A DNA stretch of 64,000 nt from a virus (IMGVR_UViG_3300021400_001615:32001-96000), one strand, 5' to 3'; shown: positions 38,250 to 64,000, counted from the first letter of the stretch. Translations and numbers: made by a program. Notes: generated by a model not told the origin, from the letters alone.

Positions 38250-39308
38250 ATGATTAGGTTAAAACCCGCTTTATCCGAGGAAGAGATTAGAAAAACTGGC
38301 GTTGCAGAAGTGCGTAAAGCCTATAACAATCTCGCAAAAGATTATAATCGTATACTTGATGGTAAGCTTTGCTATTGTCATAAATGCAATGAGTTTCGAA
38401 ACGCCGATGCTTTTTATTCGAATAAGAATTATGCAAGCGGAGCCTTTCCAATATGCAAAAAATGTTTAATGGAAATGGCTTGCGACTATGATAAAAAAAC
38501 AAATCAGTATACGGATAATCGTGAAAAAACTATGGAAGTGTTAAAAATGATGGATCTTCCATATATAGATTCATTATATCAATCCGCTCTTACTTCTACT
38601 AATGAGGACATTCAGGACAAGCACAGAAGTACTGCGTGGAGTCAGTATATAGTAATGATAAAAAGTTTGTTTCAATATAAAGATAAGAAATGGAAAGACT
38701 CAGAACTTCCGGTGGATTATTTGGATAAAGATGAAGAAGAAATAAATGAAAATTCCAGAATGCTTAAACAAGCAAAGAAGCGTTTTGGTGATGGTTATAC
38801 TAATTCCGATCTTTTGTTTCTAGAAACCGAATATAGAGATTGGATAAAACGTTATGCCTGTGAAAATAAAGCGCAGGAAATATTGTTCAAGAGGATTTGT
38901 TTTAAGGAGCTTGAGATAGATAAGGCGCAAAAATCAGGCAGAGACACAAAGGAATTGGATAAAACCTTGCAGGATTTGATGGGCAGTATGTCTTTGAAGC
39001 CAAATCAAAATAATTCAAATGCTCTTACAGAGGCAAAGACATTTGGCCAGTTAATTCAAAAATGGGAAAACGAAAAACCTATTCCTGAGCCAGAAGGCGA
39101 TTTTAAGGACGTTGATAAAATCGGCGTTTATCTTGATGTATTTTTTAAAGGTCATCTATCTAAGATGATGGGATTAAAAAATGCTTTCACGCCTTTATAT
39201 GATAGGTTTATGAAAAAGTATACGGTCAATAAGCCGCAGTATGATGAGGATTCCGATTCTGAAGCGTTATTTGACCAGATTTTTGGTACGAATTTGGATG
39301 ACGCATAA
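38250..39308 (+). CDS. Zn-finger protein preceding terminase (possible small subunit)
   Basis: CHKC...ICKKC; its stop overlaps the terminase ATG. Confidence 0.65.
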   Translation: MIRLKPALSEEEIRKTGVAEVRKAYNNLAKDYNRILDGKLCYCHKCNEFRNADAFYSNKNYASGAFPICKKCLMEMACDYDKKTNQYTDNREKTMEVLKMMDLPYIDSLYQSALTSTNEDIQDKHRSTAWSQYIVMIKSLFQYKDKKWKDSELPVDYLDKDEEEINENSRMLKQAKKRFGDGYTNSDLLFLETEYRDWIKRYACENKAQEILFKRICFKELEIDKAQKSGRDTKELDKTLQDLMGSMSLKPNQNNSNALTEAKTFGQLIQKWENEKPIPEPEGDFKDVDKIGVYLDVFFKGHLSKMMGLKNAFTPLYDRFMKKYTVNKPQYDEDSDSEALFDQIFGTNLDDA

Positions 39309-41059
39309 TGGCTGAAATAAAAAAAACTGTTCGTGAAATTGCTCAGGATAAAGAACAGAAAATAATGGAAACCGTTGCCTGGAGAGCTTCTTATTATAGA
39401 GCTAATCCACAAAGATATGTTGAAGAGGTTCTTGGTATTCACTTGAAGTTATTTCAGAAAATCCTTATATGGGCAATGATGTAGTATCACTATTTTATGT
39501 TTATTGCTGCTCGAGGAATGTCAAAAACATGGTTAACAGCATTGTTTTGTGTTGTAAGATGCATATTATATCCCGGTAGCAAAATAGTTGTATGCGCCGG
39601 TACATTAAAATAGGCCAATGGTGTTCTATTAAAAATACAAGATGAATTTATGAAACAATCGTCCATTTTGTGTAGTGAAATTGAGAGGTGTAATATTTCA
39701 TAGAATGAGGCGATTATCATGTTTAAAAATGGCTCTTGGATAACTACGAGGACAAGTACAGATAATGCTCGTGGTGCCAGGGCAAATATAATAGTTGTCG
39801 ATGAATTCCGGATGGTTGATGAGACAATTTTGAATATGGTTATAAGAAAATTCTTAACAAGTCCCAGACAGCCGAATTACTTAAATAAGCCTCAATATGC
39901 TCATTTACAAGAAAGAAATAAAGAAATATATATGTCTAGTGCATATTTTAAGTCTTCTTGGGCATGGAAAAAATTACAGGCTTATGTATTAAATTTCTTT
40001 GATGATACAAAAAAATATTTTGTCTGTGGATTGCCGTATCAATTAAGCATTAAAGAGGGACTACTATCTCGTGAGCAAATTAGAGATGAAATGAGCGAGT
40101 CAGACTTTAATGAACTTGCTTTTATTATGGAAATGGAAGCAATTTGGTTTGGTGATACGGGTGACAATTTATTCAGGTTTGAAGAAATAAATAAATGCAG
40201 AAAGATAAAGAATGCTTTATTACCTCTAAAGTTTTACAATGACAAAATAAAGGTTCCAGATTCGCTGCAAACCGAAAAGCGCATATTATCTGTTGACGTT
40301 GCTTTAATGGGATCGTCAAAGAAGAAAAAAAATGATGCTTCTGCACTATATATTAATAGTGCGATTTAGTCAGATAATGTAACATATCATTCTAACATTA
40401 TATATGGGGAAACTTTTGAGGGGTTAACAACTGATGAACTTGGAATTATTGTTATGAGATATTTTTATAAATACAAATGTACAGACTTGGTACTTGATAG
40501 TAACGGACTGGGCCTTGGTGTCGCCGATTTCATTTGTAAGGACCAATATGACTCAGAGACCGGTGAAACATACAAAGCCATATGTTGTTGTAATGATGAT
40601 GATATGGCGGCAAGGTGTAAAGTTAAAGATGCTGTAAAAGCAATGTGGTCAGTCAAGGCAACAAGCAACTTTAATAATGAAGTTTGTGTATTATTAAGGA
40701 CTGGAATACAAAATGGAAAAATTAGCTTTTTGGTTTCAGAGGAAGATTGCGATGAAAGTATATCCAAGATTTATAAATAGTATTCTAAATTAAGTCCAAC
40801 AGATCGAACTTATATCAAAATGCCGTATTTGCAAACAACAATGGCTGAGTATGAATTAATTAAGTTAGATCATGAGGTTAGAAATGGTAATATTAAAGTT
40901 AAAGAACAATCCGGTATGAGAAAAGACCGCTACTCTTCTATTGCTTATAATTATTGGTGTGCTTGTCAACTTGAGTTGAAACTGCGGCCAAAACAGAATG
41001 ATAATAATTTGGTGAACTATTTGCCAATTCGTCCGGCAAAAAGGTTCAGATCTATTTGA
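39308..41059 (+). CDS. Terminase large subunit, 583 aa, five in-frame TAG
   Basis: ARGMSKT, GTLK*AN, ARGAR, VVDEF, SVDVA, KDRYS in one frame; TAG at 39482, 39611, 39701, 40367, 40778. Confidence 0.92.
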
Positions 41060-41073
41060 GGGGGTGTTTGCCA

Positions 41074-42594
41074 ATGGCAAATTCAAAAACGGTGTCTGCG
41101 GCTACACCGAGTGGTGACGAAAAAAGAAAAATATTAAAGAAATATTCTGATGAGTATTTAATGAAACGTTTTGCAGATTCCGAGGAAGCATTTAAGCGTC
41201 TGAGGGATTTTACTAAAAATTCAACTAGAAATGTTGGTACGTTTGATAAAGAAGTATTACGTGGTTATTTTCAAAATATAATTAGTAATGAGGCAAGGTT
41301 GAGAAATCTTTCCTGGTATTTATTTTACAGGTCTCAGGTATATGCAAGGCTTGTATTATTCTTTAGTAACATGTTTGTTTTATATGCAAGATCTATTATT
41401 CCAAATTATGATTTAACTAAAGAAAATAACCCAAAAAAGGTTTTAAAATCTTTTCAGGAAACAGTCGATGAAGTTGATAAGATGAGACTACAGCATGAAT
41501 TCTATCCAATATTTGTAACTAATTTCATTCAAGATGTTAGTTATAATGTATGGATTGAAGATGATGACGGCGTTTTTTGTTTTCCGTGGCCAGCAGATTC
41601 CGCCAGGATAACGGGGAAATATAGTGAAACGGGTGAATTTGCATATGCTGTTGATGCTACATATCTTAGAAGTCATCAAGAGTTAATAGAATATTTCCCC
41701 GAACCTTTTGAGGAAATATATAGACAGTATGAATCAACTGGTGAAAAATGGCAGCCTATGCCAGAGGAATTTAGTTTATGTACTAAATATAGAAGCGAGG
41801 ATATTGAAACTTGTCTTGGGCCATTAATGCCTATGGCTAATAGTCTTATTAACTTACTGGATCTTGAAGATATTCAGGCGGTTGCTGCCGAGCAGGAAAT
41901 ATATAAATTGATTTGGTATGAACTGGAGACACTTGACGGTACTGATACGCCAGATGATTGGAAGATAGACCCCTCTCTTGCGGTTGATTATTTTAATAAA
42001 ATGGTAGATGAGGCAATTCCGCCGAATATGTCTGCTGCAATTGTTCCCGGAAAATTGAATGAAATATCTTTCCCCGACAGTGCTGCTTCTGACACAACAA
42101 AAGTTGCAAAAGCAACTGAAACCGTATTGAATACCGCCGGTGGTGCTGAAGTATTGAATGGTTCTACTATTAATAATACATATGCCTTTAAGCTTGCAAC
42201 GCAAGTTAATACGGAATATGCTATCTCTTCTCTTCTGCCACAGGTACAAAGCTGGGTTAATCACAGGCTAAAGCTGTTATTGAGCGATCCTTGTAAGGTT
42301 AAGTTCTTCCCGGTAAGTGTGTACACTCTTCCCGATTATAAGGAGCAACTACTTACTGCTGCTCAAAACGGGTTCCCGTCAATATTGGCTTATGGCGCTT
42401 GCAATGGATATTCGGAGAAAGATACTCTTGCCTTAAATAATCTTGAGGCCAATATACTTGGATTAACCAATATTTTCAAACCACTTTCCACATCATATAC
42501 TCAATCTACAAATGACGTTGGAAGACCCAAAACGCCCGATGATGAATTAACTGATTCTGGTGATAGAACCAGGGATACAGCCGCCCCGGAATGA
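41074..42594 (+). CDS. Portal protein
   Basis: ~506 aa after terminase; C-terminal PLSTSYT...GRP. Confidence 0.75.
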   Translation: MANSKTVSAATPSGDEKRKILKKYSDEYLMKRFADSEEAFKRLRDFTKNSTRNVGTFDKEVLRGYFQNIISNEARLRNLSWYLFYRSQVYARLVLFFSNMFVLYARSIIPNYDLTKENNPKKVLKSFQETVDEVDKMRLQHEFYPIFVTNFIQDVSYNVWIEDDDGVFCFPWPADSARITGKYSETGEFAYAVDATYLRSHQELIEYFPEPFEEIYRQYESTGEKWQPMPEEFSLCTKYRSEDIETCLGPLMPMANSLINLLDLEDIQAVAAEQEIYKLIWYELETLDGTDTPDDWKIDPSLAVDYFNKMVDEAIPPNMSAAIVPGKLNEISFPDSAASDTTKVAKATETVLNTAGGAEVLNGSTINNTYAFKLATQVNTEYAISSLLPQVQSWVNHRLKLLLSDPCKVKFFPVSVYTLPDYKEQLLTAAQNGFPSILAYGACNGYSEKDTLALNNLEANILGLTNIFKPLSTSYTQSTNDVGRPKTPDDELTDSGDRTRDTAAPE

Positions 42595-42833: not shown

Positions 42834-44492
42834 ATGCATAAAAAGTTATTGACGATTGATGATCTTGTAAAATTCTGCGACTAGAACAATTTTGCAAAAT
42901 TTAGTTCTAAGGAATCTGGTTATCAAATTTGCATATAGACACCGGCAAAATTTGAAATGAGTAGCTCTGATGATCCAACTATGTTTTATGGAAATGTCTT
43001 AGTAATGCATTCTGGTAATAACAGGAATGGATCCTCTTTGACTGAAGATGCGGCGAAGAAGGCAATCAAAAATCTTGCTTATAAACCGGTATTGGCTAAT
43101 TTTTGCGAAATTGATGGTGTAAAGGATTTTACTAGTCATGATTTTGATATAGACGAGAATGGCGAATATGTTTATTACGAAAAGCAAATTGGCTGTTTTA
43201 CTGCTGATAAGGCTTATATGGAACAGGATAGTAATCATAGCGACCGTATGAATGTATTTGCAAAGGTTGCCATTCCCCGTGAATATACAGATGCAGCCGA
43301 AATAATTGAGAGAAAAAACGGCACAAAGGTATCTGTTGAGCTTGCCGTTAATGAACTATCTTATTCTGCTAAAGATCACGTTCTTTTACTTGAAGACGTT
43401 GATGTAATGGGTCTTACTTGTCTTGGAGTTAATCCAGACACCGGGGATCCCGTAAACGAGGGAATGGAGGGCGCTCATATCCAGATTGAGGATTTTAGTG
43501 CCGAAAATAATTCTCTTGTTTTTAATGCAGAGATTATTAATTCGATTGCTGATGCTGTTGCAAAACGGCTTAGTGATAAAAACGATAACCAAAGAAAGGA
43601 GGACGAAACAGTGGATTTCGAAGAAAAAAACGAAGAAGTTGTTGAAGAAACAGAGGTAATGTCTGAAGAAGTTGAAACCACTGAAGAGGAAGTTCGTGAG
43701 GTTGATACCGAGACATCTGAAGAGGTTGTTGATGATACTACTGAAGAAGTCGCTGATGAAACTCCTGAAGTGGTTGATAGTTTTGCCGATGATGATCCGG
43801 TCGATAATACGGATGATAATACGGATGAAAACACGGATGATAATACGGATGACGAAGAAGTTGTAATTGATGATGACACTTTACCGCCAACATATAAAAA
43901 GGTTGTTAATGGTATGGAGTTTGAATTATCTCTTTCCGACATTCAGAATGCTATGTATGATCTTGTCAATTCTACATATGCTGAATCTGATAACGATTAT
44001 TATGTGTGTGAAATTTATCAGGATTCTAAAAGCGTTGTAATGATTGGAATGTGGTCTGGTAAGGCATTCAAACAAAACTACAAAGTCCGCAATGATGTTT
44101 ATAGTCTTGTTGGTGACAGGGTTCCTGTAAGGGCTTCCTGGCTAACTGCCGACGAAGAGGCAGAACTTGACAGAATGAGAAGCAACTACTCTTCTGTCGT
44201 TGATAAGCTGGCTAAGTATGAATCCGAACCACAGAAAATGGACATTTTAAATTCCGATGACTATTCTCAGGTTGCAAACAGTAATGAGTTTATTGCACTT
44301 AAAGATGTTGATAAACATTTTGATATGACAATTGATGAGGTGCGTAGTGCAGCCGACAGTATTCTTCTTTCATATGCAAAAGGCAATAAGATTGATTTTG
44401 CTGAAAATGAAAAGAAACGTGATGGCGGCCTGAAACTGTTTGCTTCTAAGGATAAAAAGAAACCCGGTAGATACGGCAATTTATTTAAATGA
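42834..44492 (+). CDS. Prohead protease/scaffold (YonD-like), two TAG
   Basis: ATG 42834 with AGGAGG; TAG at 42882 and 42936; H.G.NRNGS, VSVEL, acidic scaffold region. Confidence 0.75.
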
Positions 44493-44555: not shown

Positions 44556-45035
44556 ATGGCTTATGGAAAAATTAATATGACAAAGCATGCCATTTGTTTC
44601 CCGTCTAAAGTTCTTGCTGGAAACATGGGCGCTCATATTTTTAACGTAACACTTTCCACGGCTGCTGATAATGGCAACATTATTGGTCGTGGTGCATGGA
44701 ATTCTTTTGACAATTATGCAGAGGCTGCTTGCCCGAACGGATTTGCCGCAAAGATTGTTGATAAAGCTGCGAACGGACATTGGTATGTAGAGGTTACCGC
44801 TGTTCCTAGCACTGGCGAAGCTTTACTTGTTTACAATTCGCCGATTATCCCTTACGAATCTCCTCGTGAGCTTGCTGATCTTTCCAACTTCTGGAATGAC
44901 AAAGATGAGGTAGTAAAGGCTTATACTCTTACTGTCGGTGATATCTTTGAAGTATCCGATGAAGCGTTTACTGGTACGCCAGTAAAAGGTAAAGCTCTTA
45001 CTGTTGCTAGTAAAAAGCTTGTTGTTGGTGCTTAA
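44556..45035 (+). CDS. Capsid decoration/stabilising protein (putative)
   Basis: Between scaffold and MCP; DNG motif. Confidence 0.6.
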   Translation: MAYGKINMTKHAICFPSKVLAGNMGAHIFNVTLSTAADNGNIIGRGAWNSFDNYAEAACPNGFAAKIVDKAANGHWYVEVTAVPSTGEALLVYNSPIIPYESPRELADLSNFWNDKDEVVKAYTLTVGDIFEVSDEAFTGTPVKGKALTVASKKLVVGA

Positions 45036-45060: not shown

Positions 45061-46188
45061 ATGAAGAAATTTAATTTTTCTACGCATGTTAATAATGTGT
45101 TTTCTGAAATGGAAACCAATTATGATGAAGTAAGAAATCTGATGTTTGATCTTGCCATGGGAAATGAGATTTTTGATGGTGATCGTGTAGTGCCGAAGGC
45201 AGAGGCCGAAGCAAAGCTGCGTACTGTTTGCTAGAAAATCTTTGGGGTAACCGCCGATTCTTCTAAGCGTGAGCTTAAGAGAGCGTATAGAGAGCATGGC
45301 CGCGAATTCTTCGACATCATTGAAGAGGTTGTTGATGTGGTTATTAATAACGGCCTTAAGGACAATGAGTTCTTCAATCAATTTGTGGACTATAGAAATC
45401 TTGCCCTTGGTGATGCTTATGAGTTTTATAGTGAAGACGACGTAATTCTGTCTATTGCTGAAGTTGGTGTATCTCATCATGATTACATCCTTCAGAGACT
45501 TGGTAAGGGTCAGACAACGACCATTCCGTACAAGAGATATGGTGCTGCTGTTGGTGCTGATATCAACATGTACATGATCGGTCGTGAGGATTGGACGACA
45601 CTTTGTAATGCGATTGCTAAGGCTTTTGCAATTCAGATTCAGCAGGAAATCTATGGCGAAATGCTTTCTGCCGCCAATGCAATTCCGGCTGCTATTAGAA
45701 ATGGTTTTGTTGGCAGTGGCGCTCTGAGTTCTACAACCAAGGACGATTTCGACAAGATTATTGAAAATGTTGAGACGGCTAATGAGTCTTCTGTTGTTAT
45801 TCTTGGAACAAAGACTGCCCTTAAGAAACTGAATGCACTGTCTGATGTCAACTGGAGAGCGCAGTCTCTTAAAGAGGATGTTTCTCACAGTGGACGTATG
45901 GGAGATTATGAGGGTACTGTTCTTATGGAGCTTCCTCAGAGATTCACCAGCAAGACTGATCTTACACCGCTCATTGATAACACTAAACTGTGGATTCTTC
46001 CTGCCAGCCAGACTGATAAGTTCATTAAGATGGTAGATGTCGGGGAAACCGAAATCGATGAAATCACCGAGAAGGGTGAGGAGCATGGTCGTTGGGATGA
46101 TATCATGAAGTACGAAGTACAGCGTTCTTATGGTATTGCTACAATGCTTGGACGTTACTTCGGACAGTGGACTCTGCCCACAGCGTAA
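45061..46188 (+). CDS. Major capsid protein, 375 aa, one TAG (45232)
   Basis: ATG 45061 in frame with ORF 45337; biased codons; size and position. Confidence 0.8.
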
Positions 46189-46224: not shown

Positions 46225-46812
46225 ATGGCTACAACAACTACTAGAAAAAAGACAACTACAAAAACGGCTGCTCCGAAAACCGAGACACAGAAAACTGTGC
46301 CTAGTCAGGACAGTGTAGATAAAGTTGTCAAAGAAGAGCCGAAGAAAGAAAAGAGGGTTTTTAGTCCAGACGATGGCGTTGTTTGTCGTTCTGTCACCCA
46401 GGGTGGACTTTATATGGAGGGACCAAAGACTAAAATGCACTATGAATGGGTTCAGTATGGTGATGTGACCGAGGTCGAATATGCAGACCTTGCCGCTCTT
46501 GTACGTGTAAAATCCCAATATGTATTTGGTCCATGGTTTATGATAGATGATGATGATTTTGTTGAAGAATTTCAGCAGTTAAAGAAGTTCTATACTGATA
46601 ATTATTCTTTGAGTGATCTTGAAAAGATTTTAACATATCCGGTTGATGATATGATGAATGAAATTAGATCTCTTCCAAAGACGGCCATTGAATCTATTAA
46701 AGTATTAGCCGCTTCTTCTATAACGGATGGCGACCTTGACAGTGTGGCAAAAATTAAAGCTCTCGACGATTTCTTTGGCACGAAACTTAGTATTCTTGCT
46801 GAATTTAAGTAA
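46225..46812 (+). CDS. Hypothetical virion-region protein
   Basis: ORF with RBS. Confidence 0.7.
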   Translation: MATTTTRKKTTTKTAAPKTETQKTVPSQDSVDKVVKEEPKKEKRVFSPDDGVVCRSVTQGGLYMEGPKTKMHYEWVQYGDVTEVEYADLAALVRVKSQYVFGPWFMIDDDDFVEEFQQLKKFYTDNYSLSDLEKILTYPVDDMMNEIRSLPKTAIESIKVLAASSITDGDLDSVAKIKALDDFFGTKLSILAEFK

Positions 46813-46830: not shown

Positions 46831-47289
46831 ATGACCTCTGAATATGAAGATATCTATTCTCGTTTTTATGAACGAGTTGAAGATTATAATATTGTTGGAT
46901 TGAAAGAAAGATTAGTTAAATAGATGATGAATGGATGGATAAGATCAACGTTATCAAAGCCGTATATTAGGCGGCTTTTTGATACGTTGACTATAGATGA
47001 AGATTTGGAAGAATTAGATTATGAAATGAAATTACCGACTACGGATGATGCTGATCAAGATTTTGTAGAGGAAATGATTGCGTTGGGTATGGTCGTAGAA
47101 TGGGTAAAACCAAAATATTTTACGACGCTAAATACTTCTCAGCTATTTACAAATAGTGAACAGAAGTTTTATAGCCAAGCTAATCATATGTCTGAGCTAA
47201 AGGACATGTATCACAGAGCAAAGAATGATCTTCGTAAACACATCCGTGATCGTGGATACATTAATAATACCTATCTGGTCACAACATGA
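46831..47289 (+). CDS. Head-tail adaptor (putative), one TAG (46921)
   Basis: MTSEYEDIYSRF...FYSQANH; GGAGG RBS. Confidence 0.7.
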
Positions 47290-47618
47290 AAACCAGGTAT
47301 GGCTATTATTCTTCCAATTAGATTAAATCAATTAAGTATCTCATTCGTAAATCCATATTTTTCTTACTTCTTTATGTTGATCCACAAACGAAAGACGAAT
47401 ATCCAAATATTAATGTTGGAGATGCCTTTCGTAGCTTATAGTACAGGCTTTCTGGTTTAAACAGTATATTAAACGAGCCTGTGGAAATTGTTGAAACAAT
47501 GATTTTGTTAGAATCTGCACTTGCAGAATACGAGAGTGAATGTTTTGATTGGTTGAAATACAGAAAGCTCATCCTCGACGCTGGGGCAAAGATAATGCAG
47601 ATAAAGGAGTGTGATTAA
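47286..47618 (+). CDS. Hypothetical 110-aa protein, two TAG; absent from ORF track
   Basis: Open with TAG read as sense; fills the gap between flanking genes. Confidence 0.7.
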
Positions 47619-47619
47619 T

Positions 47620-50600: not shown

Positions 50601-50615
50601 TTGGGGGTATGAATT

Positions 50616-51188: not shown

Positions 51189-51963
51189 TCCTAAAATTGA
51201 GTTTGATTTGTTACAAATGTATTTTGGGGAGCCGTATGTAATTGATTTGCCAGATGCACTTGGAAAGGTTACTGTATACTCCCCCACTATTGGTGACATT
51301 ATCGAGATTGGTGAGAAAAATTTTTATAAAACGTTAAATATTTTTATTTGTAATACTACTCAGTACCGTGTTGTTTTATGGGATCTTGGAATTGATTGGA
51401 ATACATATAGTGATTTCGAACTGTTCATAAATTTATTACCGGAGGCTGATCCAACTGCTTCCAAATTATTATTTGGCGATTTAGATTTTAGTAAGTTTGT
51501 TCCGATTTGGCGGAAGAAAACTATAGACGATGATCCTGAACTTGTACTTTGGGATGAAGAAGATGAAGTAGAAATTAATTATAATGTCTACAATCATTTT
51601 GCTTAGTATATAAGAACTATGTTTAATACTTTTCCAGAAGAAAAGATTACATAGGATAACACCTTAAAAAGCTGGTATATTACGAAAGATAAACGGGCTA
51701 TAGAAAATAAGAAAAAGCTTGCCGAAAAGGGCAAAGATGAATCATATAGTATTCAAACTCTTATTTCTTCATGTATTAATCATCCAGGTTTTAAGTATGG
51801 ACTGAAAGATTTAAAAAAGGTTGGTGTTGCTGAATTTTATGATTCTGTTAAGCGCCTTCAGGTTTATGAACAAAGTACGGCATTGATGAAAGGTATGTAT
51901 TCTGGTTTTATTGACGGTTCTAAAATTAAGCCAACGGATTATAATTTTATGAGAGAAATTTGA
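51178..51963 (+). CDS. Tail-region hypothetical protein, two TAG
   Basis: Frame continues past TAG 51604 to TGA 51961; NHPGFKY, FYDSVKRLQ, GMYSGFID. Confidence 0.75.
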
Positions 51964-52064
51964 TAATAATTATTGTTGTATATTCATATTTTTAGTATAA
52001 AAAATTGAGTCGGCGAATTCCTGCTCTTTTATTTTATAAATTTTCAAGAAAGGAGATTATTACT

Positions 52065-53347: not shown

Positions 53348-53512
53348 TTTAACAAAACGATTTTTAGAAGATAATTTTAGCGCTCCACAACATTTAAATT
53401 GTGGGGCGCATTTCAAAATAAATAGGTTGGTGTCATGAGCCAACTGACAAGAGAGGGAACACCTACCCTCTCTTTTATTTTGTCGAATTTAGGTGATTCA
53501 TTAAGAGGTGAA

Positions 53513-54679
53513 ATGAATATGAAAAAAAGTTTTGAGCAATTTTGCAAAGATACGAACAATTATGATTTATTAAATTTGTGGGATAGCGAATTAAACAAAA
53601 CAGATCCTAAATCTGTAAGTTATAGCACAACTAAAAAATATTGGTTTATGTGTCCAAATGGCTTACATGAATCGAGACAGATTTGTGTTGGTAATGTTAC
53701 AAATGGATATAAAACAAGAGGTTGTTATTGCATATGCCATGCGTGTAACTCTATAGGCCAATATATTATAAATAAATATGGTAAGAAGTACTTAGATGCA
53801 ATTTGGTCTAATAAAAATCAGAAATCATATTATGACATAGATAAATCAAGTGCAACCAAGATATGGCTTAAGTGCATAAATGATGATACTCACGATGATT
53901 ATGATGTGACCGCCAATAATTATTCTAGTGGTCATCAGAAATGTCCGTATTGCACCGGTCAGCGAACGTGTTTAACTAATTCGTTTGGTTATAAACATCC
54001 AGAATATGTTGGCGTATGGTCTGATAAAAATTCGTTTAGCCCTTTTGAGCGTTCATATGGCAGTAAGGATTATGCGTGGTTCAAATGTGAGAATGGTATA
54101 CATAATGAATACAAAAAACGCATTAGAGATATAAATTATACAAAGTATATCTGTCCGGAATGTGCAAAGGAAAAGGCTATTAGTAATATACCAAGGGGCG
54201 AGGACTCTCCGCAATGGAGAGGCGGCATTTTAAAGGATAGTCAAAGAATTAGGAATTCTAAAGAATATTCTGAATGGAGGATAAATGTATTTAAAAAGGA
54301 TTGGTTTACTTGTCAATGCTGTGGTGTCGGAAATAATATACAGGCACATCATATAAAACCATTTTCGCAGTATGAAGAATCACGATTAGAAATAAGGAAC
54401 GGTATGTGTCTGTGTGAATTGTGTCATCAAAGTAAGAAAGCTAATTCTTTCCATAATATTTATGGTACTCATAATAATACTCCATCTCAGCTTGAGGAAT
54501 ATATTAATAACAGGCGCAAACAGCTTGGTATTAATATACCGTTTTCTTTAGATTCTTATTTATCTGGTAACATATTAAAACCGGGTGATGTAACTATCAA
54601 TGAAGAAATTCCCTGGATTTTTGATACAATAAGTATCAACGATCTTAAATTTGAAAATAACAGTGATATAGCTGTTTGA
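53513..54679 (+). CDS. Free-standing Zn-finger/HNH homing endonuclease
   Basis: Repeated W.KC..H...CPYC units; CQCCG...AHHIKP...NG.CLC..CH. Confidence 0.8.
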   Translation: MNMKKSFEQFCKDTNNYDLLNLWDSELNKTDPKSVSYSTTKKYWFMCPNGLHESRQICVGNVTNGYKTRGCYCICHACNSIGQYIINKYGKKYLDAIWSNKNQKSYYDIDKSSATKIWLKCINDDTHDDYDVTANNYSSGHQKCPYCTGQRTCLTNSFGYKHPEYVGVWSDKNSFSPFERSYGSKDYAWFKCENGIHNEYKKRIRDINYTKYICPECAKEKAISNIPRGEDSPQWRGGILKDSQRIRNSKEYSEWRINVFKKDWFTCQCCGVGNNIQAHHIKPFSQYEESRLEIRNGMCLCELCHQSKKANSFHNIYGTHNNTPSQLEEYINNRRKQLGINIPFSLDSYLSGNILKPGDVTINEEIPWIFDTISINDLKFENNSDIAV

Positions 54680-54725
54680 TATAGATATGGCAAATATTGT
54701 TTTAAAATATTAAAGGAGGCCCATT

Positions 54726-55151
54726 ATGCAAAAATCAAAAGAAAGAACATGTCTTATGTGTGGAACCAAGTATCAATGGTGTATTCATTGTAAAGATACC
54801 AGGCCGGATGAGGGCTGGCGTTTTCTTTATCATGACGAGAAGTGCAGAGACATGAGTGAAATATGGTATGCATATAGAGGTAAAGAGATTTCAAAGGCTG
54901 AAGCCAAAGAAAAAATGAGTGCGTTGAAGCCGAATATTGATGATGTATTGAAATATACTTCTATTGCGGCTAAAGAAATTAGAGAAATTTTCGATGTTCC
55001 AGAAGAGCAGGAAGTAGTTGAAAATGAAATTACTAATCATGAAGAAAGCAATGATGTTGTCGAAGACGCTGAGGTTGCAAAAGAAGATAATTTTGCGCAA
55101 CATACAGTAAAACATTTTGATAATAAGCATGATTATAGAAAGAAAAAATAA
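54726..55151 (+). CDS. Hypothetical Cys-motif protein
   Basis: CLMCG..Y.WC..C. Confidence 0.7.
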   Translation: MQKSKERTCLMCGTKYQWCIHCKDTRPDEGWRFLYHDEKCRDMSEIWYAYRGKEISKAEAKEKMSALKPNIDDVLKYTSIAAKEIREIFDVPEEQEVVENEITNHEESNDVVEDAEVAKEDNFAQHTVKHFDNKHDYRKKK

Positions 55152-55199: not shown

Positions 55200-55236
55200 G
55201 GGGTAGCCAATTCACAATTTGGTTACCCCATTTTTT
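55200..55236 (+). terminator. Rho-independent terminator
   Basis: GGGGTAGCCAA/TTGGTTACCCC stem plus T tract. Confidence 0.7.
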
Positions 55237-55245
55237 ACGTTTTAT

Positions 55246-55549
55246 AGCCCCTTAGCATAATTTGGTAATGCACCGGTCTCTTAGCTTAATTTGGACACCT
55301 AGATACGAAAGGTCTAGTGTGAATTGTGCCTAATTCGACGAAACTCTCATATGAGACAACGACGAGCTAAATCAAAATATATTTTTGTAAATGTGTAGAG
55401 ACTATATAGCACACATCTAAGTCCTATCGGATATGATGAAGAAATAGTCCAGACCACAACGCATATGCGGCTATGGTGACATAGAGTGGTAAGAAAACCG
55501 TGATATCCCTCTGAAGGAGGTTATCTGGGTTCAAATCCCAGGGGGGCTG
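55246..55549 (+). tRNA. Amber suppressor tRNA(CUA): join(55246-55281, 55494-55549)
   Basis: AGCCCCT/GGGGGCT acceptor, GCAT/ATGC D stem, spliced loop CTCT|AAA, CTGGG-TTCAAAT-CCCAG T arm. Confidence 0.85.
55282..55493 (+). mobile_element. Compact group I intron (212 nt) in the tRNA anticodon
   Basis: IGS TTTGGA, P AATTCGACGAA, Q AACGACGAGC, R GTAGAGACTA, S AAGAAATAGTCC, terminal G 55493. Confidence 0.85.
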
Positions 55550-56121: not shown

Positions 56122-56628
56122 ATGAAAGAAATTACTATTATTCCTAATTTAAATCATTTTCTTAATGATGGCATTACAGAAGTTCCAACATTTTATACTT
56201 TTAATAAGATTAATGAAGATCATATTTAGAACGTTAAAAATTTAATGTCAATTATTTCTGGCGATTTAAGTGCCAGATCACAATATCACGATTATACAAA
56301 AGTTAGAGAACCGCATAAAACCGATTTTTACAATGCTGTTTATGAGAAAATTAAAAATGGTATTCCAATAGATGAAAGTGATTGGGCGAAGGATCATTAT
56401 GAACTTGAGCGCCATCATTTAAACAAACATGTTCCATCGGATGTTGATTTAATTGATGTGTTGGAATATGTTATTGATTCTATTGTTTCTAATGTTGAAC
56501 AACTCGGTATAAAAGGTAATGTTACAATTAGCAATCAGGATCTAATGAATGCATTGCGCAATACGGTTAGTAAAATCAGTGATATGATAAAAATACCGGA
56601 AGAAAACGATGAAAACAAAGGTGATTAA
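56122..56628 (+). CDS. DUF5662-like protein, one TAG
   Basis: HDYTK...HYELERHH. Confidence 0.6.
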
Positions 56629-56629
56629 T

Positions 56630-57661
56630 ATGGGTAGAAAAACAGTCTATAACAACATTACATCGCCCCAGTTAATATCTTAGGTATTACCAGAGAACAA
56701 ACAACTTGGCGAGGATTTTATTGAATATTTGCAGTCAATTGATCGTTCTCCGAGTACTATCAATCAGTATAAATCAGATCTCTCTATTTTCTGGGTATGG
56801 AATCTACAAAACAATAATAATAAACCGTTTATCAAAATTACGAAACGTGAGTTTGCCAGGTTCCAAAATTATTGTTTAAATACCTGGGGTTGGAGTTCTA
56901 ATAGAATTCGTAGAGTAAAATCTGTAATATCTTCCATGAGTAACTTTATAGAAAACATATTGGATGAGGAAGAAGAATTTGAGGGGTATCGTGCGGTAAT
57001 TCGAAAGATAGAATCGCCGGTTAAAGAAGAAGTTCGTGAGAAAACAATTTTTGAACCGGAAGAACTTCAAAGGCTTTTGGATCATTTAGTTGATCAAAAG
57101 AAATACATGCAAGCGTGTATACTCGCTCTAGCAATGTATTCCGGTAGACGTAAAGCGGAGTTGCCGAGATTTAAAGTCTCTTATTTTGACGATGAGAATG
57201 TCTTTCTTGGATCCTTATATAAAACGCCAGAAAAGGTAAAGACAAAGGGTCGTGGTTCCAGGGGTAAAATGTTAAACTTATATGTATTAAAGAAAGAATT
57301 TGATCCGTACCTCAAGCTCTGGTTAGATTACAGGAAAGAAAATGGAATTGAAAGTGAGTGGCTATTTCCAGCTGCCGATGATCCAGCTAATCATATTAAG
57401 TCAGAAAATCTTGATAATTGGGTTAATACCTATACGAAATTTTTAGGTAAGCCATTTTACTGGCATAGTCTTCGTCATATGTTTTGCACCCAATGTTTAA
57501 AGAAGAACCTTCCTTCTTCCGTTGTCCAGGAAATTATTGGTTGGGAATCTGCCGATATGGTTAATCTTTATAATGATACAACTACAGAAGAAACGCTTGC
57601 CCAGTATTTTGATGAAAATGGTATAAAGGATGTTAAATCAACAAATCTTTCAGAAATTTAA
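56630..57661 (+). CDS. Tyrosine recombinase, one TAG at codon 18
   Basis: SGRRKAEL, KTKGRG, HSLRH, IIGW, NLY. Confidence 0.88.
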
Positions 57662-57743: not shown

Positions 57744-58184
57744 ATGGAATATAAATTGGTTATGGATAAATAGGTTATTGATGAATACTGTGACTACTAT
57801 TTTAGCATTCATACTCGCGCTTGGAAAAAACCAATAGAACGCCCTTTACATCCGAGTTTAAATACGTGGATGATTTTGCCAAGAGTTCAAATGAACACAT
57901 TAAAACAGAAATGGAAAGACTTTGGTGTTTGGTGGATTAAAAAACTTGGATATGATGGGCTAATGTTGGATAAGTTTGCTGCTGAAGTAACCGTATATAT
58001 GCCGTCCAGAAGAAGATTTGATTTAGATAATCATTGTAATGAAAAGTTTTTATGGGATGCTTTTATTGAAGCGGGTTTCATAGTTGATGACGATTGTGAT
58101 CATCTTACTTCTCTCTTGCTTAAAGGTGGATATGACAAGGAGAATCCGAGAACAGAAATTATAATAAGGACGGTGGATAATTAA
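57744..58184 (+). CDS. RusA-like Holliday junction resolvase, one TAG
   Basis: PSLN, RRRFDLDN, DAF..AG...DDD, NPRTEI. Confidence 0.75.
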
Positions 58185-58260
58185 AACATAATGAAGATAG
58201 TAATAAAAACGTGTTGAAAATTGTTTGTAGTTAATAGTACATGAATTGGGGATGATTTAA

Positions 58261-58671
58261 TTGGGATATGTTTATTATAACCCCAATCCCATGGGGCGTT
58301 TGTCGAGTGGTGATTGCACTGTAAGAGCATTGAGTGTTGCTTTGGGGTTCTATGGTGATTGGATGAAAACATATGCTTTGCTTTGTGCCGAGGGCGCATA
58401 GCATTGTGAAATGCCATCGGCCAATGAAGTATGGGGAAGTTTATTATTAAAGAACGGATATGAAGAACACAGTTTGTTACAGAGATGCAAAGACTGCTAT
58501 ACGCTTGCCGATTTTTGCAAGGATCATAAAGATGGTGAGTACGTTGTTGGTACTGGTTAGCATACTGTGTATTGTAGAAATGGTGACTATATGGATTCGT
58601 GGGATTCTGGCGATGTAATCCCAACATATTATTTCAAAAAGGTAAATAAGGAGGAAATTAAAGATGAATAA
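58261..58671 (+). CDS. Papain-like Cys-His-Asp protein (putative), two TAG
   Basis: YYNPNP...GDCTVRA...HTV...DSWDS. Confidence 0.65.
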
Positions 58672-59266
58672 TTTCAATGATTATACGACAACTTATCAAC
58701 CAATGGGGCAATCCAATATGTATATTCCACCAACTCAGGCGGCCACACCGGTTTATCCCAAAAACTGGCAACAATATTATCAACAGCCTATGACTAATAA
58801 TATGATTTATCAGTCTTAGATGTAGCCGATGAATAATCCAATGGTATGGGTTCAGGGTGAAGCTGGTGCGAAATCTTATCAGCTTCCTAATAATACTACT
58901 CTTCCGCTTTGGGATAGTGAGCAGCAAACCATCTACATTAAGACGGTTGATTAGAACGGCAAACCGACTATGACAATATTAGATTATGTGGATAGGAATG
59001 CGCCAGCTGCCAGCAATGATACTGATAAGGTTGCACAGGTTGAGTATGCTACCAAGGAACAAGTTGATGGTTTGAGTAACCAGTTTTCCGCTATTAGTGA
59101 GAAACTTAATATGATGAGTGAATATGTTACGAGAGACCAATTCGACGATTTGAACGATCATATTAAAGATCTCGGTGGCCAGATAAATGATATTGAAGAT
59201 AGAATTACTAGTTTTGGCAAACCTCAGTCTGGTAACAACTATAATAATAAGAGGGGGAATAAATAA
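58664..59266 (+). CDS. Gln/Asn/Pro-rich hypothetical protein, three TAG
   Basis: WVQGEAGAKSY...LWDSEQQTIYIK; in frame with ORF 58970. Confidence 0.75.
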
Positions 59267-59547
59267 TGCCAAATTCTTTATTTAATAAATTTGGGCCAGC
59301 TAATTATTAGCGCCAGAATTCTGGTAATAATATTTTGCAACAGTTGGCATAGATTAAAAATAATCCGGGCGCAATATTGGAGATTATGTTGCAAAACGGA
59401 AAAATAAATCGTTAGCAGTATAATGATTTATAGCAGTACAGGAATAATCCTGAAATGATTTGTAAGTATTTGATCAACAATGGTAAGGCTAACGAAATTA
59501 ATCAAGCCGAACATATTGTTGGTCAGATGGGTAATTTTAACGGTTGA
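59266..59547 (+). CDS. Small Gln/Asn-rich protein, four TAG
   Basis: Start overlaps the previous stop; open with TAG as sense. Confidence 0.65.
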
Positions 59548-59649
59548 TATAAAATAAAACGTTGTTGATGTCTAATTATAAATTCTATTTTGTGATATTA
59601 ACAAATTAATTATGATTTATTTGTTTTTTTACAAAGGAGGTTTTTAATT

Positions 59650-60384
59650 ATGGCACTTACAGAAAACTTAAGCGCTGCTGATCTTGCGGCTGTACTCGGA
59701 AATAACAATGGTGATTTTGGTGGTAATGGTGCATGGTGGTTACTCATTCTTCTTATTTTTGCTAATAATGGATGGGGTAATGGCAATGGCTTTGGTGGTA
59801 ATGGTGGATATATGCCGCCGTATGCGACCGCCAACGATGTATAGAGTGGCTTTGATCAGGCTGCGCTTATTTCTGGGATTAACGGTATCACTACTGCTCT
59901 CTCTAATGGCTTTGCCAATTCTGAGATTTCCCGTACAAATATGCTTTCTAATTTAACAAATCAACTGAATAATTCTGCCATGGCGTAGCAGCAATGCTGC
60001 TGCAATACTCAGGCGGCTATCAAGGACGTTCAGTATACTGTGGCTACAGAGGCTTGCGCCGACCGTGCTGCCGTTACTGACGCTCTGAGGGATGTTATTG
60101 CCGCTAATAATGCAAGTACTCAGCGTATTCTCGATCAGATGTGTTCTGATAAGATCGATGCTAAGAACGAACAGATTGCCGCTCTTCAGCAGCAGTTAAC
60201 TATGGCGCAGCTTGCTGCTTCTCAAAATGCTCAGACTGCTGCAATTCTTGCCAATAATGATGCCCAGACTGCCGCTCTTGAACAGTATTTATCTCCTGTT
60301 CCCCGCCCGGCATATGTTGTTCAGAATCCTAATTGCTGTGGTAATTATTTTACAAGCTCTTGCGGATGTGGAATGAATGCTTGA
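59650..60384 (+). CDS. Gly/Cys-rich membrane-anchored protein (spore-coat-like), two TAG
   Basis: GAWWLLILLIF, DV*SGFDQ, MA*QQCCC, PAYVVQNPNCC. Confidence 0.75.
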
Positions 60385-60399
60385 TTGGAGGTGGCATAA

Positions 60400-60870
60400 A
60401 TGGCTGAATATAGTGCAAACGCTGTTCAGACAGTAAATCCTGGCGAGACCATTGTTTTCACAGAAACGCCTGTGCCTTGTACTCGTGGATTTGTTCGTCA
60501 CCGTGAAGATACCGGGAACTTTCTTCTTTCTGGTTATGTACCAGGCGTAAATCGTGGATGTTGTTGTAATCGTGTAAATTCTGCGAATTATCTTGTTGAC
60601 TTTGGTGCAAATATTGCCATTCCAACTGGTGGAACAGCCGGGGCAATATCTGTCGCCATACAAATTGATGGTTCTACCATCTCCTCTTCCACTATGACGG
60701 TTACACCGGCTGCTGCGGAAGAGTTTTTTAATGTTTCCAGAGCTGTTAATGCGCAAATTTGGCGAGGTTGTTGCGAAACGATTTCTGTGAAGAATGTTAG
60801 TGATCAGCCTATATTGGTGTAGAATGCTAACATAATAATTACTCGTCCAGATTTGTTTGTGAGTCGATAA
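60400..60870 (+). CDS. BclA C-terminal-like beta-rich protein, one TAG
   Basis: VQTVNPGETIVF...FGANIA...ILV*NANIII. Confidence 0.65.
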
Positions 60871-60889
60871 GAAAAGGAGGAGTATTAAA

Positions 60890-61324
60890 ATGCGAGAATT
60901 TGATAACATCAAAGATATGGTGTATTGTGAAATTGATGAAATATCTCATCAGGGGAAACTCGACATGAATACTGTTAAGGTTCTTGGAGAGTTGGTTGAT
61001 ATTCTTAAGGATATTGGCTCCGTTGAGATGTTTGAAGAGGGTGTTCAGATACAAGATGAGGGATATTCATTGTCTAATGGATATAGCCGTAATGGAGGTT
61101 ATTCTCAAAGAAGTATGCCCATTTATTACAACGATGGTAGTAATAGCTATCGTGGTGGTAGGGGAATGAATAATGGCGGATATTCACGCAGAGGTCGTGG
61201 GTATAGCTATGATGATGGAAAAGGTTACATGATTGAAAAGCTTAATGGTTTAATGATGGAAGCAACTGATCAACATGATAAAGATGCCATACAGCGTCTT
61301 ATTGACCAGTTTGCGTCTAAGTAA
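60890..61324 (+). CDS. Hypothetical protein with Gly/Tyr/Arg-rich segment
   Basis: GYSR repeats. Confidence 0.7.
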   Translation: MREFDNIKDMVYCEIDEISHQGKLDMNTVKVLGELVDILKDIGSVEMFEEGVQIQDEGYSLSNGYSRNGGYSQRSMPIYYNDGSNSYRGGRGMNNGGYSRRGRGYSYDDGKGYMIEKLNGLMMEATDQHDKDAIQRLIDQFASK

Positions 61325-61377
61325 TTTTTGTTGAGAGTTTATGATTTAGATATGAACTACGTTTTATTTATATATAC

Positions 61378-61408
61378 TGGGGATCGGGAAACTGATCCCC
61401 ATTTTTTT
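61378..61408 (+). terminator. Rho-independent terminator
   Basis: TGGGGATCGG-GAAA-CTGATCCCCA plus T tract. Confidence 0.75.
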
Positions 61409-61425
61409 GTAAAGGAGAATAAGGT

Positions 61426-61977
61426 ATGTCTAAGAAAATTTCTGCTTTTTTAGCTGAATATAAAACAAAGAAAACTATTGAAGAAAAAGATGAATGTGTA
61501 AAAAAATATATGAATAATAACTATGTTCCATATGATAAGAAAGCTGATGTCGCGAATGCGATTGCAGACACTGCTTATCATCGGGTTGAGATAGATAAAG
61601 ATGGCAACGAACGTAAAGTGCTTCATGTCGATTCTATTGCAAGATATATGTTGACATGTATGTCCGTTGTTGATTTATATACGAATATAGAACGTCAGAG
61701 AATTGGCGGTAATATGCTTGATGATTTTAATGCATTGATGAGTGTTGGTGCATTGGATTTGATTATTAAAAATTTGGACCCGTCTGAGCTTAAAGAATTT
61801 AAAATGGTTGTTCAGATGGCATGTGATGATCTTATGACAAATGAATATGAAAATCATGCGTTTATTTCTAAACAGGTTGAGAGATTTGGCAAATTAGTTG
61901 GAAACTTTATTTCCCCACTCCTCTCCCAGTTAGATATGAGTAAGGTTGAAGAAATACTTGGTAAATTCAATTCTTAA
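61426..61977 (+). CDS. Hypothetical protein (possible tail chaperone)
   Basis: ORF with RBS upstream of the tape-measure-like gene. Confidence 0.65.
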   Translation: MSKKISAFLAEYKTKKTIEEKDECVKKYMNNNYVPYDKKADVANAIADTAYHRVEIDKDGNERKVLHVDSIARYMLTCMSVVDLYTNIERQRIGGNMLDDFNALMSVGALDLIIKNLDPSELKEFKMVVQMACDDLMTNEYENHAFISKQVERFGKLVGNFISPLLSQLDMSKVEEILGKFNS

Positions 61978-62082
61978 TCTCTTATTATGATTAAGTATTG
62001 TTAGCATCTCAAGTATTTAAATCATATCATGTTGCAGTATGGGTGTTAATAATATTTTTTTGTAAAAAGGGGATGAATAATT

Positions 62083-62583
62083 ATGGACGCTTCTAATATA
62101 GATGAAATGGTTAATTAGGCTGTAAAAGAGGTTAAAGCCAGAGTTCTTGGTGTTGCCGATAAGATAGGTTATGATTTGGTCGAGGCAATCTAGATTAAGT
62201 ATGATCATTGTGTTGATGCATTTTATAAGAGTTTTACGCCTGCGTATTATGATAGAACATATAATACATACTCCGCTTCAGATGGTGAGCATGGCGTAAG
62301 TTCTCTTTTTGATGTCCAAGATAGCGGTGATACAATATATATAACTGCTGGTATAACATTGGATTCAAATAGACTCTAGCCATGGTATGATGATCCGACG
62401 GATTATGTATTTAGTCGTACCTGGGAAAGAGGTATACATGGCACAATTGAAACTGGTGGTCAAATGGGTGAACCACCAAAAGCAATGATGGATAAATGGT
62501 TTAAAGACTTTCAAAGTTCTGGACATAGAATAATTGTAAATAAGCATTTAGCTTCTATAGGTCTTGGTTCAAGGCGTAGATAA
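62083..62583 (+). CDS. Hypothetical 166-aa protein, three TAG; absent from ORF track
   Basis: FYKSFTPAYYDRT...GIHG. Confidence 0.7.
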
Positions 62584-62589
62584 TTAAAG

Positions 62590-64000
62590 GTGGTGAAAAT
62601 AGTGGGTTTAGTAAATGAATTTAAGATAACTGTACCAATAGAGGTTGATACAAAACGAATGCGTTCCGATCTCAAAAGTCAGTTTACGCATATTAAAGAA
62701 GAATATGAGGGAGAGTTCATAAAAATAAGAATTACCGGTGATGAAAAGGATCTGGAGAAAATCAAACAGCAAATATCTCAAATGAATTCTAAAGATATTC
62801 CAAAAATAAAATTGGATATAGATCGTGCAAATTTTGATAAACACTTAAAAGATCTGGAAAATTCGGCGGGTAAATCTTCTAAGTAGATAGCGGATACTTT
62901 TAAAAGGAATATTGCGACGGGTTTTGAACCTTTAAGCATAGGCGATTTAATTAAGAAACAATTTGGTAATTCGAAAAGGTATTCTGGTACGGCAGCAAAA
63001 GAAACAATTGCAGCAATGGCACAACCGCTTTCTACGCCGCTTCCTGATGATGCAAGTTACATGGACATTGTAAGGAGGGCTGAGGCGTATGAACAGCTGG
63101 CAGCTGCCATAAAAGACGTACAATAGAATCACCCTAAAGATTTTAAGAAGCTTGGTATTGATCAAAATGAAGTCCAGGCTTCAATAGACCAGTTTTATCA
63201 ATAGATTGGCGCTAGAATTTCAAATGAGGCAAATCGCACTGATTTTATATCTCAAATATAGGCATCATTTGTTACATTGAGTTAGAACCTTGCCACGATG
63301 ATGCAATCTATTATTGATGATGTTAAAGCAAAAATAGGTGGTGGAACTGGAACCGGTACAGGAAGTGGAACCGGTTCTGGTGATGGATCTGGGACTGGTT
63401 CCGGTACGGGTGGTGGAACTGGTGCTGGTTCTGTAGAAATTCCCGGGGGATTTTAGTCGGACGAAATAAATGAATTGGATAATTAGATCGATAAATTGGC
63501 GCAAGATATAGAAAATGCAAAACAAAGATTGTAGGAATTACAAAATACGGGAAAGGATGCCAAAGCTTACGATATTAGGCAAATGATGAATGGTCTGTAC
63601 AAAGAAATTGACACTATATTGCAAGACCCCAATACAGATCCAGATGAAGCAGATAGAAAAGCTGAAGAATTAAAAAAGAGAATGCTAGATTTGTATGCTA
63701 CATATCAAAAGGTTGGTGGAAGCGATGGCGATTTAAATGAGACCATGTGGGAAGAAATGTATGACTGGATTGATGAGTATGGTGACGGCAAAGCAATCAA
63801 AGGGTTAAAAGTTGTAGATGAGGCTGCAATTGCTAATCAATAGTCCCTAATTCAAGGTCTTATTTCTACCCTCGATGCACTAAAAGCGAAACGGGAAGAG
63901 TTATTAAAGCAGCCATAGCCGTCGTCAACATAGCAAACCGGTTAGACTGGTTCTTCACCATCAAGTTCCGGTGATTAGTCTGGCACTCAATAGACTGGCG
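62590..64000 (+). CDS. Tape-measure-like protein, 5' part, about 14 TAG
   Basis: One frame with no TAA or TGA to the window end; coiled-coil character, Gly/Thr linker. Confidence 0.65.

Follow-up and report, generated by a model that had tools for sequence, protein, structure and literature searches.

The locus and its setting

The DNA analysed here, referred to below as the window, is a stretch of 64,000 nucleotides from a virus (IMGVR_UViG_3300021400_001615:32001-96000). This report concerns a long row of plus-strand genes in which TAG is used as a sense codon, and an intron-split transfer RNA (tRNA) gene lying among them that is predicted to read this codon. The whole genome is 160,883 bp long, of which the window covers bases 32,001-96,000; a repeat of about 107 bp is common to both ends, and the source record classes it as a complete virus with direct terminal repeats. 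Positions are those of the window unless genome positions are given. Replication and lysogeny genes occupy a minus-strand arm of the genome, and a second arm, on the plus strand, starts at about 27.7 kb. The recoded block, here called the late block, is on the plus strand and runs from 39,308 to approximately 119 kb, past the window edge (genome 71.3-151.1 kb).

The first recoded gene is that for the large terminase subunit, TerL (39308-41059, +), which matches Terminase_6N and TerL_ATPase, contains five in-frame TAGs (codons 59, 102, 132, 354 and 491) and ends in TGA. A head-region protein that belongs to no known family (42834-44492, +) has two TAGs, at codons 17 and 35, in an N-terminal part that is conserved in relatives (the homologue in locus L001 aligns over residues 1-552). 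The major capsid protein candidate (45061-46188, +) has one TAG, at codon 58, and ends in TAA or TGA. It is 25-27% identical to annotated major capsid proteins of the Bacillus phages Thrax4, Izhevsk and KoopaTroopa, and relatives can be aligned with it from residue 1-2 onwards, at 82-87% identity. At the right-hand edge of the window a giant, tape-measure-like frame begins (62590-64000 in the window, +), with 14 TAGs in its 470 in-window codons; in full it comprises 4753 codons with 92 TAGs and ends in TAA at genome position 108851.

TAG as a sense codon in the late block

Under the standard code the sequence from 39,308 onwards falls into short fragments, whereas reading TAG through gives long frames, every one of which ends in TAA or TGA. 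Coding density under code 11 and with TAG as sense was compared by region. Greedy coverage by open reading frames (ORFs) in 5-kb bins over genome 70-150 kb rose from 0.55-0.9 to 0.84-1.00 when TAG was treated as sense, the gain being seen in the late block and for TAG only; across the whole genome, no comparison of greedy ORF cover showed such a gain for TGA or TAA. The late block contains 228 in-frame TAGs and no in-frame TAA or TGA in 24,505 codons, alongside 426 CAA and 391 CAG codons, so that TAG occurs 9.3 times per 1000 codons in frame and would make up about 22% of late-block glutamine codons. Out of frame in the same block, TAA and TGA outnumber TAG by a factor of 2.6-2.8. The frequency of out-of-frame TAG is alike in the early and late regions (12-15 per 1000), which excludes decay and a regional C-to-T artefact.

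TAG is therefore used as a sense codon in the late block, with a bias toward virion genes. TerL, the capsid candidate and the tape-measure-like gene are recoded, whereas the genes for the DnaE-like polymerase, DnaG, DnaB, ribonucleotide reductase, the integrases and the MrpR-like repressor are free of TAG. An initial annotation, made from the sequence, had described the terminase, protease/scaffold, capsid, neck, tail tube, recombinase, resolvase and tape-measure-like genes as each forming one continuous frame ending in TAA or TGA once TAG is read through. This stands for TerL (5 TAGs), 42834-44492 (2), the capsid candidate (1) and the tape-measure-like gene (14 in the window), but some of the supposed single frames are exons separated by group I introns, and no Pfam or named PHROG match supported the naming of a protease/scaffold, neck, tail tube or resolvase gene. 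All five of the sequence contexts it quoted do fall at in-frame TAGs: GTLK*AN at TerL codon 102, YALD*L in 51960-52868, LV*NANI in 60400-60870, and both DV*SGFDQ and MA*QQCCC within the gene at 59650-60384.

Avoidance of TAG in early and middle genes

Upstream of the late block the picture is different. In their code-11 ORFs, the early and middle genes comprise some 20,700 codons without an in-frame TAG, and recoding sets in exactly at the terminase start, 39308. The plus-strand block immediately upstream (27707-39308, +) holds 11 ORFs with no in-frame TAG and with TAA (7) or TGA (4) as stops, and is readable under either code; its genes include an antirepressor-like gene, an HNH gene, and genes for a 903-amino-acid protein, an HU-like protein, tRNA-Pro, PhoH, ClpP and a metallophosphatase. 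The 100 code-11 ORFs of the left arm stop at TAA (55), TGA (41) or TAG (4), and the 16 ORFs of the right end (genome 151.1-160.9 kb, outside the window) at TAA (6) or TGA (10), with no TAG. In total, TAG ends 4 of 127 ORFs outside the late block as against 42 of 152 in standard-code relatives (Fisher p = 8e-9), a comparison based on related loci and crude ORF calls. The few candidate TAG stops on the minus strand have a TAA or TGA 1-13 codons further on.

The early genes thus avoid TAG both as a sense codon and as a stop, instead of using it as a stop, and early and middle genes without TAG are correct under either code. The absence of internal TAGs from the genes at 27.7-39.3 kb and from the left arm had been noticed in the initial annotation, and is confirmed for the code-11 forms. 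It also noted an apparent TAG stop in 23470-23826; this ORF (23347-23826, -) is an orphan without homologues, its sole database match being itself.

The amino acid at TAG

Alignments were made with 26 related IMG/VR loci and one contig from a rumen metagenome-assembled genome (MAG), and the codons opposite each TAG were tallied; as the loci are related, alignment cells are not independent. A scan with the C-terminal part of a 2487-amino-acid late protein gave no related loci. Among close recoded relatives, the 53 cells in well-aligned context opposite our TAGs include glutamine (18), TAG (13), glutamate (7), lysine (4), serine (1) and leucine (1), with no tyrosine. The log-likelihood of glutamine in this set is -83.6 against -124.3 for the next residue, and glutamine forms the majority in 11 of the 23 columns. 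Distant relatives with an essentially standard code give glutamine 48, asparagine 24 and leucine 18, with log-likelihoods of -291 for glutamine and -370 for the next residue. In the other direction, the TAGs of relatives stand opposite CAA (22), CAG (16) and TAG (15) in our sequence. The MAG contig, at 90% identity, gives CAA 3, CAG 3, TAG 3, AAA 1 and GAA 1.

TerL codon 102, in the context GTLK*AN, is an invariant glutamine in six homologues, namely SPbeta YonF, Lysinibacillus LC76P1, Mammaliicoccus phi6255, phiCD211 and two metagenomic sequences, and three TAGs of one relative fall in columns that are glutamine in all, or all but one, of the other aligned homologues. Every data set shows a preference for glutamine, among recoded and standard-code relatives alike, and the alignments support the earlier suggestion that TAG encodes this residue.

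A suppressor tRNA split by a group I intron

Direct scans for a TAG-reading tRNA found none, whether with ARAGORN (default and relaxed), with the Rfam tRNA model genome-wide, or with a cloverleaf scan for NU-CUA-RN loops. Standard finders missed the suppressor because a group I intron lies in its anticodon loop: an intron-split tRNA gene is present at 55,246-55,549, and its CUA anticodon is present only after in-silico removal of the intron.

The gene lies immediately 3' of a strong terminator-like hairpin with a T run (55200-55239, +). Exon 1 (55246-55281, +) supplies the acceptor strand, the D arm, the 5' strand of the anticodon stem and the loop bases CUCU, ending at U35. The intron (55282-55493, +) is 212 nt long, lacks an ORF, ends in G and separates U35 from A36; it matches the Rfam group I model RF00028 over 55278-55469. 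Exon 2 (55494-55549, +) begins with A36 and completes the loop; it then adds the 3' strand of the anticodon stem, an extra arm of 23 nt, the T arm, and the second acceptor strand with G73. The end of exon 1 reads ...CCGGU-CUCU and the start of exon 2 AAA-ACCGU; the intron guide UUUGGA pairs with UCU of exon 1, where the splice-site pair is a U.G wobble, and also with AAA in exon 2 (P10). ARAGORN folds the joined exons into a cloverleaf called tRNA(cta). An alternative parse, with a 231-nt intron and a UAA anticodon, was rejected: it would require a 3-nt spacer between the D and anticodon stems as well as a stem with three G.U pairs, and a related sequence gives it no support.

That relative, 79% identical, has the same junction and carries compensatory changes at 1:72, 2:71, 6:67 and 7:66 as well as in the D stem. 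The intron core is conserved in 27 IMG/VR loci. In three loci (L051, L061 and L063) a different tRNA body, of class I, is split at the same site between CU and A, and the neighbourhoods of L051 and L063 are strongly TAG-recoded. An exact-pattern scan for the exon 1/intron junction returned only the one relative already known.

Other recoded relatives carry intron-less tRNA(CUA) genes. One, L068 (G002:C1:55785-55875), has a class-II-like body and is found on the upstream side of the terminase gene, about 5.8 kb before the portal gene; another, L072 (G001:C1:33888-33958), belongs to class I and has an unusual C as base 33. Genomes G001 and G002 are close recoded relatives, with portals 77-85% identical, and their suppressor genes differ and sit at different genome positions.

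The body of the split tRNA has A1-U72, G73, the 23-nt extra arm and a 9-nt D loop with GG. Its extra arm can be drawn as a hairpin with a 7-nt loop, CU-CUG-AA (55509-55515), which in the relative is CU-UUG-AA, on a closing stem where a C-G pair has become G-C; the extra arm of the intron-less class-II-like relative (L068) also has UUGAA. CUG and UUG are glutamine anticodons. This Gln-type loop may help in charging by glutaminyl-tRNA synthetase (GlnRS), on a comparison of two or three sequences.

The genes next to the tRNA, encoding an HNH endonuclease, a 141-amino-acid ORF product, a 127-amino-acid ORF product and an integrase (together about 990 codons), are TAG-free in their code-11 forms; the late-gene rate would predict about 9 TAGs there, a comparison made post hoc.

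Translation machinery and host

The initial annotation had pointed to release factor or synthetase genes elsewhere in the genome as something to look for. Domain searches across the phage genome for RF-1, PCRF and the catalytic domains of GlnRS and glutamyl-tRNA synthetase (GluRS) found no match. The MAG contig used in the alignments (L064, CACYCJ010000409.1, from MAG RUG11815) is a recoded phage contig of 5.8 kb with 90% portal identity, binned in a rumen Lachnospiraceae MAG which has an intact prfA, encoding release factor 1 (RF1), and a GlnRS-type ORF. The evidence for a standard-code Lachnospiraceae host that supplies GlnRS is weak but consistent. The phage has a complete 160.9-kb SPbeta-related genome of siphovirus type, and its host is probably one of the rumen or gut Lachnospiraceae.

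Interpretation and alternatives

We propose that the phage has two coding regimes, and that late TAGs are read as glutamine by its own intron-split tRNA(CUA); we put the probability of this reading at about 0.88. The replication, lysogeny and middle genes, having no TAG, would be translated correctly by host ribosomes whether TAG means stop or glutamine. The packaging, head and tail genes and those downstream of them (39308 to about 119 kb) would be completed only when the TAG-reading tRNA is available. Its CUA anticodon would form on removal of the 212-nt intron from between U35 and A36, presumably by self-splicing, and it would most likely be charged by the host GlnRS, with the Gln-type loop of the extra arm perhaps helping. 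We infer both the late timing of the recoded genes and the way in which RF1 is outcompeted, and the latter would matter greatly since a single frame holds 92 TAGs.

Several observations weigh against this proposal. The term late is assigned here from gene function alone, and the boundary at 39308 lies inside one co-directional row of genes with no visible transcription break. The group I match of the tRNA intron barely exceeds the Rfam threshold (50.5 bits against a gathering score of 50). The class-II-like body, with its long extra arm and G73, has the textbook layout of a serine tRNA and so suggests serine, not glutamine. Folded alone, the extra arm prefers a 5-bp stem with a 3-nt loop to the 7-nt anticodon-like loop. 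The host link depends on the binning of one 5.8-kb contig, and may be a host clue or a binning artefact.

That the in-frame TAGs arose from errors of sequencing or assembly (CAG read as TAG), or that the late genes are decayed pseudogenes, is extremely improbable. In-frame TAGs occur in the same genes, partly at other positions, in contigs from seven other samples; TAG alone, never TAA or TGA, interrupts frames of up to 4753 codons; and the equal out-of-frame frequencies are joined by the presence of a matching suppressor tRNA. It is hardly more credible that phage and host both use code 15 throughout infection, the TAG-free early genes being a coincidence of composition. The host is not firmly known, which leaves some room for this, but the early and middle genes have no in-frame TAG where the late rate is 9.3 per 1000 at equal out-of-frame frequency, and the MAG with the near-identical contig has an intact RF1 gene. 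No bacterium is known in which TAG encodes glutamine. This is consistent with the account of recoded phages by Borges et al. (10.1101/2021.08.26.457843).

A reading of TAG as serine, leucine, tyrosine, or pyrrolysine/lysine has slightly more to recommend it than a shared code 15, and is still very improbable. The serine-like shape of the joined exons favours it, and ARAGORN calls any cta anticodon 'Pyl'. Against it, serine and leucine each occupy one of the 53 close-relative cells and tyrosine none, glutamine leads by 40-80 log units, TerL codon 102 is invariant, and the arm loop is of Gln type with CUG changing to UUG in the relative. The hallmarks of tRNA-Pyl, a 3-nt variable loop and a small D loop, are absent, and the columns hold glutamine, not lysine. 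We therefore set the serine hint from the tRNA body aside, since the alignments point to glutamine.

The intron itself could be a purpose-built timer, with regulated splicing gating late translation. The unspliced gene has no CUA anticodon, the split site recurs in other recoded phages, and there is a strong terminator-like hairpin upstream. Group I tRNA introns generally self-splice constitutively, however, and the close recoded relatives G002 (class-II-like) and G001 (class I) make do with intron-less tRNA(CUA) genes. The late genes hold at least three other group I introns, which suggests the ordinary spread of mobile introns. We regard a timer as unlikely, and the intron of the split tRNA(CUA) looks like an optional mobile passenger, given its absence from the suppressors of two close relatives and the three further introns in late genes.

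Other genes and elements of the window

These further introns lie upstream of the tRNA gene. Two group I intron cores (48154-48432, 60.7 bits; 48557-48819, 100.9 bits) and a LAGLIDADG homing endonuclease gene (48942-49961, LAGLIDADG_3) make up the elements at 48154-49975 (+), which interrupt a late gene that resumes with the exon 49983-50600. The endonuclease gene has one in-frame TAG, and its PHROG endonuclease match spans that codon. In L001 the homologues of the exons 47611-~48165 and 49983-50600 are 55 nt apart in one frame, which identifies L001 as an intron-less allele. A third core (52880-53221, 65.7 bits) is followed by a TAG-free HNH endonuclease gene (53435-54679) and the TAG-free 141-amino-acid ORF (54726-55151), the whole spanning 52880-55151 (+). 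Two of the three extra late-gene introns are thus followed by homing endonuclease genes.

The portal gene (41056-42594, +; phrog_2739, 8e-75) follows the terminase gene and has no TAG in 512 codons, where the late-block rate predicts about 4.8; further TAG-free late ORFs lie at 44556-45035, 46225-46812, 60890-61324 and 61426-61977. Three small TAG-bearing virion-region genes or exons occupy 46831-48153 (+), at 46831-47289, 47286-47618 and 47611-~48150, the last with 7 TAGs in about 180 codons. Recoded virion-region genes continue over 49983-52868 (+), at 49983-50600, 50616-51188, 51175-51963 and 51960-52868, with one or two TAGs each and a match to the virion structural protein family phrog_2729. 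Downstream of the tRNA gene, a TAG-free 127-amino-acid ORF and a tyrosine integrase (56729-57661 in code-11 form; Phage_integrase 1e-20) lie inside the late block at 56245-57661 (+). Further recoded genes within 57744-62583 (+), none with a known family, are 57744-58184, 58664-59266, 59266-59547, 59650-60384, 60400-60870 and 62083-62583, with one to four TAGs each and TAG-free ORFs between them. For most of the small late genes, Pfam and PHROG searches suggested no function.

The two halves of TerL are matched separately by PHROG families of 'unknown function', phrog_15503 for the N-terminal half and phrog_26582/phrog_24618 for the C-terminal half, which score above the terminase families. These three families may be fragments of recoded terminases annotated under the standard code in public phage records.

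Another tRNA gene, for tRNA-Pro(UGG) (33888-33957, +; RF00005, 36.7 bits; anticodon loop UU-UGG-GA), was considered as a suppressor and rejected on its anticodon; it was missed by default ARAGORN, and has homologues in relatives G001 and G003. Weak tRNA-like matches at genome 29201-29274 and 29391-29439 were likewise rejected, being without a CUA anticodon. At genome 29200-29273 (-), about 2.7 kb before the window and in a tRNA cluster, the anticodon loop is oversized; relaxed ARAGORN gives a 4-base 'ccat' and Rfam 20 bits.

The minus-strand arm encodes a DnaE-like polymerase, a PD-(D/E)XK nuclease, DnaG, DnaB, a RecA-like ATPase, ribonucleotide reductase and tyrosine integrases. A TAG-free gene for a protein with an MrpR N-terminal domain, resembling the SPbeta master repressor (4745-5671, -), adjoins an integrase gene (6973-7953, -) and is part of a lysogeny module that is compatible with the standard code. 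Between 16000 and 28000 lies a compositional island with a GC content of 0.43-0.50, against 0.31-0.39 elsewhere, holding a reverse-transcriptase region and several orphan ORFs. Between two minus-strand genes, at 25582-25652 (-), the sequence matches the HDV-like ribozyme model RF02682 (HDV-F-prausnitzii) at 46.4 bits, the gathering score being 44. The 'theta' ribozymes, which are HDV-like, have been tied to tRNA processing in recoded gut phages (PMC10879173); no tRNA adjoins the match at 25582-25652.

Comparison with known systems

The initial annotation called the phage SPbeta-like with a repressor module. This is loosely right: TerL is 44% identical to SPbeta YonF in an alignment that spans the TAGs, the MrpR N-terminal domain and the DnaE-like polymerase are present, and large Firmicutes siphoviruses provide the nearest named relatives of the portal and the capsid candidate, so that the term is fair for a distant relationship. 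The SPbeta-type features (YonF-type terminase, YonE-type portal, MrpR-type repressor, DnaE-like polymerase) have identities of 22-44%, which makes this a distant relative outside the genus Spbetavirus. Homology of TerL, portal and capsid candidate links it to SPbeta, phi3T, phiCD211, Lactococcus 949-like and Mammaliicoccus phages, and it shares with the SPbeta group the repressor domain, the polymerase, a giant tape-measure-like gene and group I introns. The SPbeta group differs in using the standard code, in identities much too low for a common genus, and in host, which is Bacillus for SPbeta and probably Lachnospiraceae here.

Recoding of TAG to glutamine with a bias to late genes was already established in gut phages, as the initial annotation stated, and our observations match the published descriptions. 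In TAG-recoded phages TAG aligns with glutamine, recoding is found in structural and lysis genes, integrases are stop-free and TAG stops are depleted; a suppressor tRNA is detectable in just 40% of the genomes, and noncanonical tRNAs have been suggested (Borges et al., 10.1101/2021.08.26.457843). The same points have been made for crAss-like phages, with the suggestion of undetectably divergent suppressors (Yutin et al. 2021, PMC7886860). The present phage resembles the Lak, crAss-like and 'gemstone' code-15 phages in having glutamine at TAG, a structural-gene bias, TAG-free replication and integrase genes and a suppressor tRNA, as well as in low GC, rare TAG stops and a likely standard-code Firmicutes host. 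By description it is also like the Firmicutes 'Agate' clade, which has genomes of 154 +/- 27 kb and both standard-code and recoded members (Borges et al., 10.1101/2021.08.26.457843), as the size range and bidirectional skew of that clade match the genome size and two-arm layout seen here. It differs in that some Lak/Agate phages have an RF2 gene, with none here, and in that the suppressor here is hidden by an intron. Compared by description, phAss-1/'Phassvirus' is similar in its genome of about 136 kb, in TAG within many characteristic ORFs and in its suppressor tRNAs, but differs in that three of these are directly detectable (Babkin et al. 2023, PMC10607447).

The late-gene recoding is thus a known phenomenon, here extended to a distant SPbeta relative with an MrpR-type repressor and several integrases. 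The extension agrees with the published view that recoding keeps virion production apart from lysogeny and early functions. Annotation under the standard code shatters about half of this genome, including the terminase, capsid and tail genes, and the frame with 92 TAGs implies near-complete suppression despite host RF1. The less ordinary detail is the decoding tRNA, a concrete case of why suppressor tRNAs escape detection in many recoded phages. The papers searched gave no description of an intron-split suppressor tRNA or of a spare-anticodon extra arm in recoded phages. It is conceivable, although we think it rather doubtful, that a spare arm with a glutamine anticodon lets GlnRS, or a GluRS/amidotransferase route, accept a stop-codon reader, and that intron-split suppressors are part of the undetected 60%. 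If true, charging through a spare arm would represent a novel type of tRNA identity device, and split suppressors would explain part of the 60% of TAG-recoded phages with no suppressor found.

The intron has close counterparts outside these phages. Group I introns are classically inserted in the anticodon loops of cyanobacterial tRNA-Leu(UAA), Azoarcus tRNA-Ile and Agrobacterium tRNA-Arg. Like them, the intron described here is small and ORF-less, follows a 5' exon that ends in a U paired to a guide G, has a terminal G and forms a short P10 with the 3' exon. It differs from these classical introns in residing in a phage amber suppressor, which it splits between anticodon bases 35 and 36.

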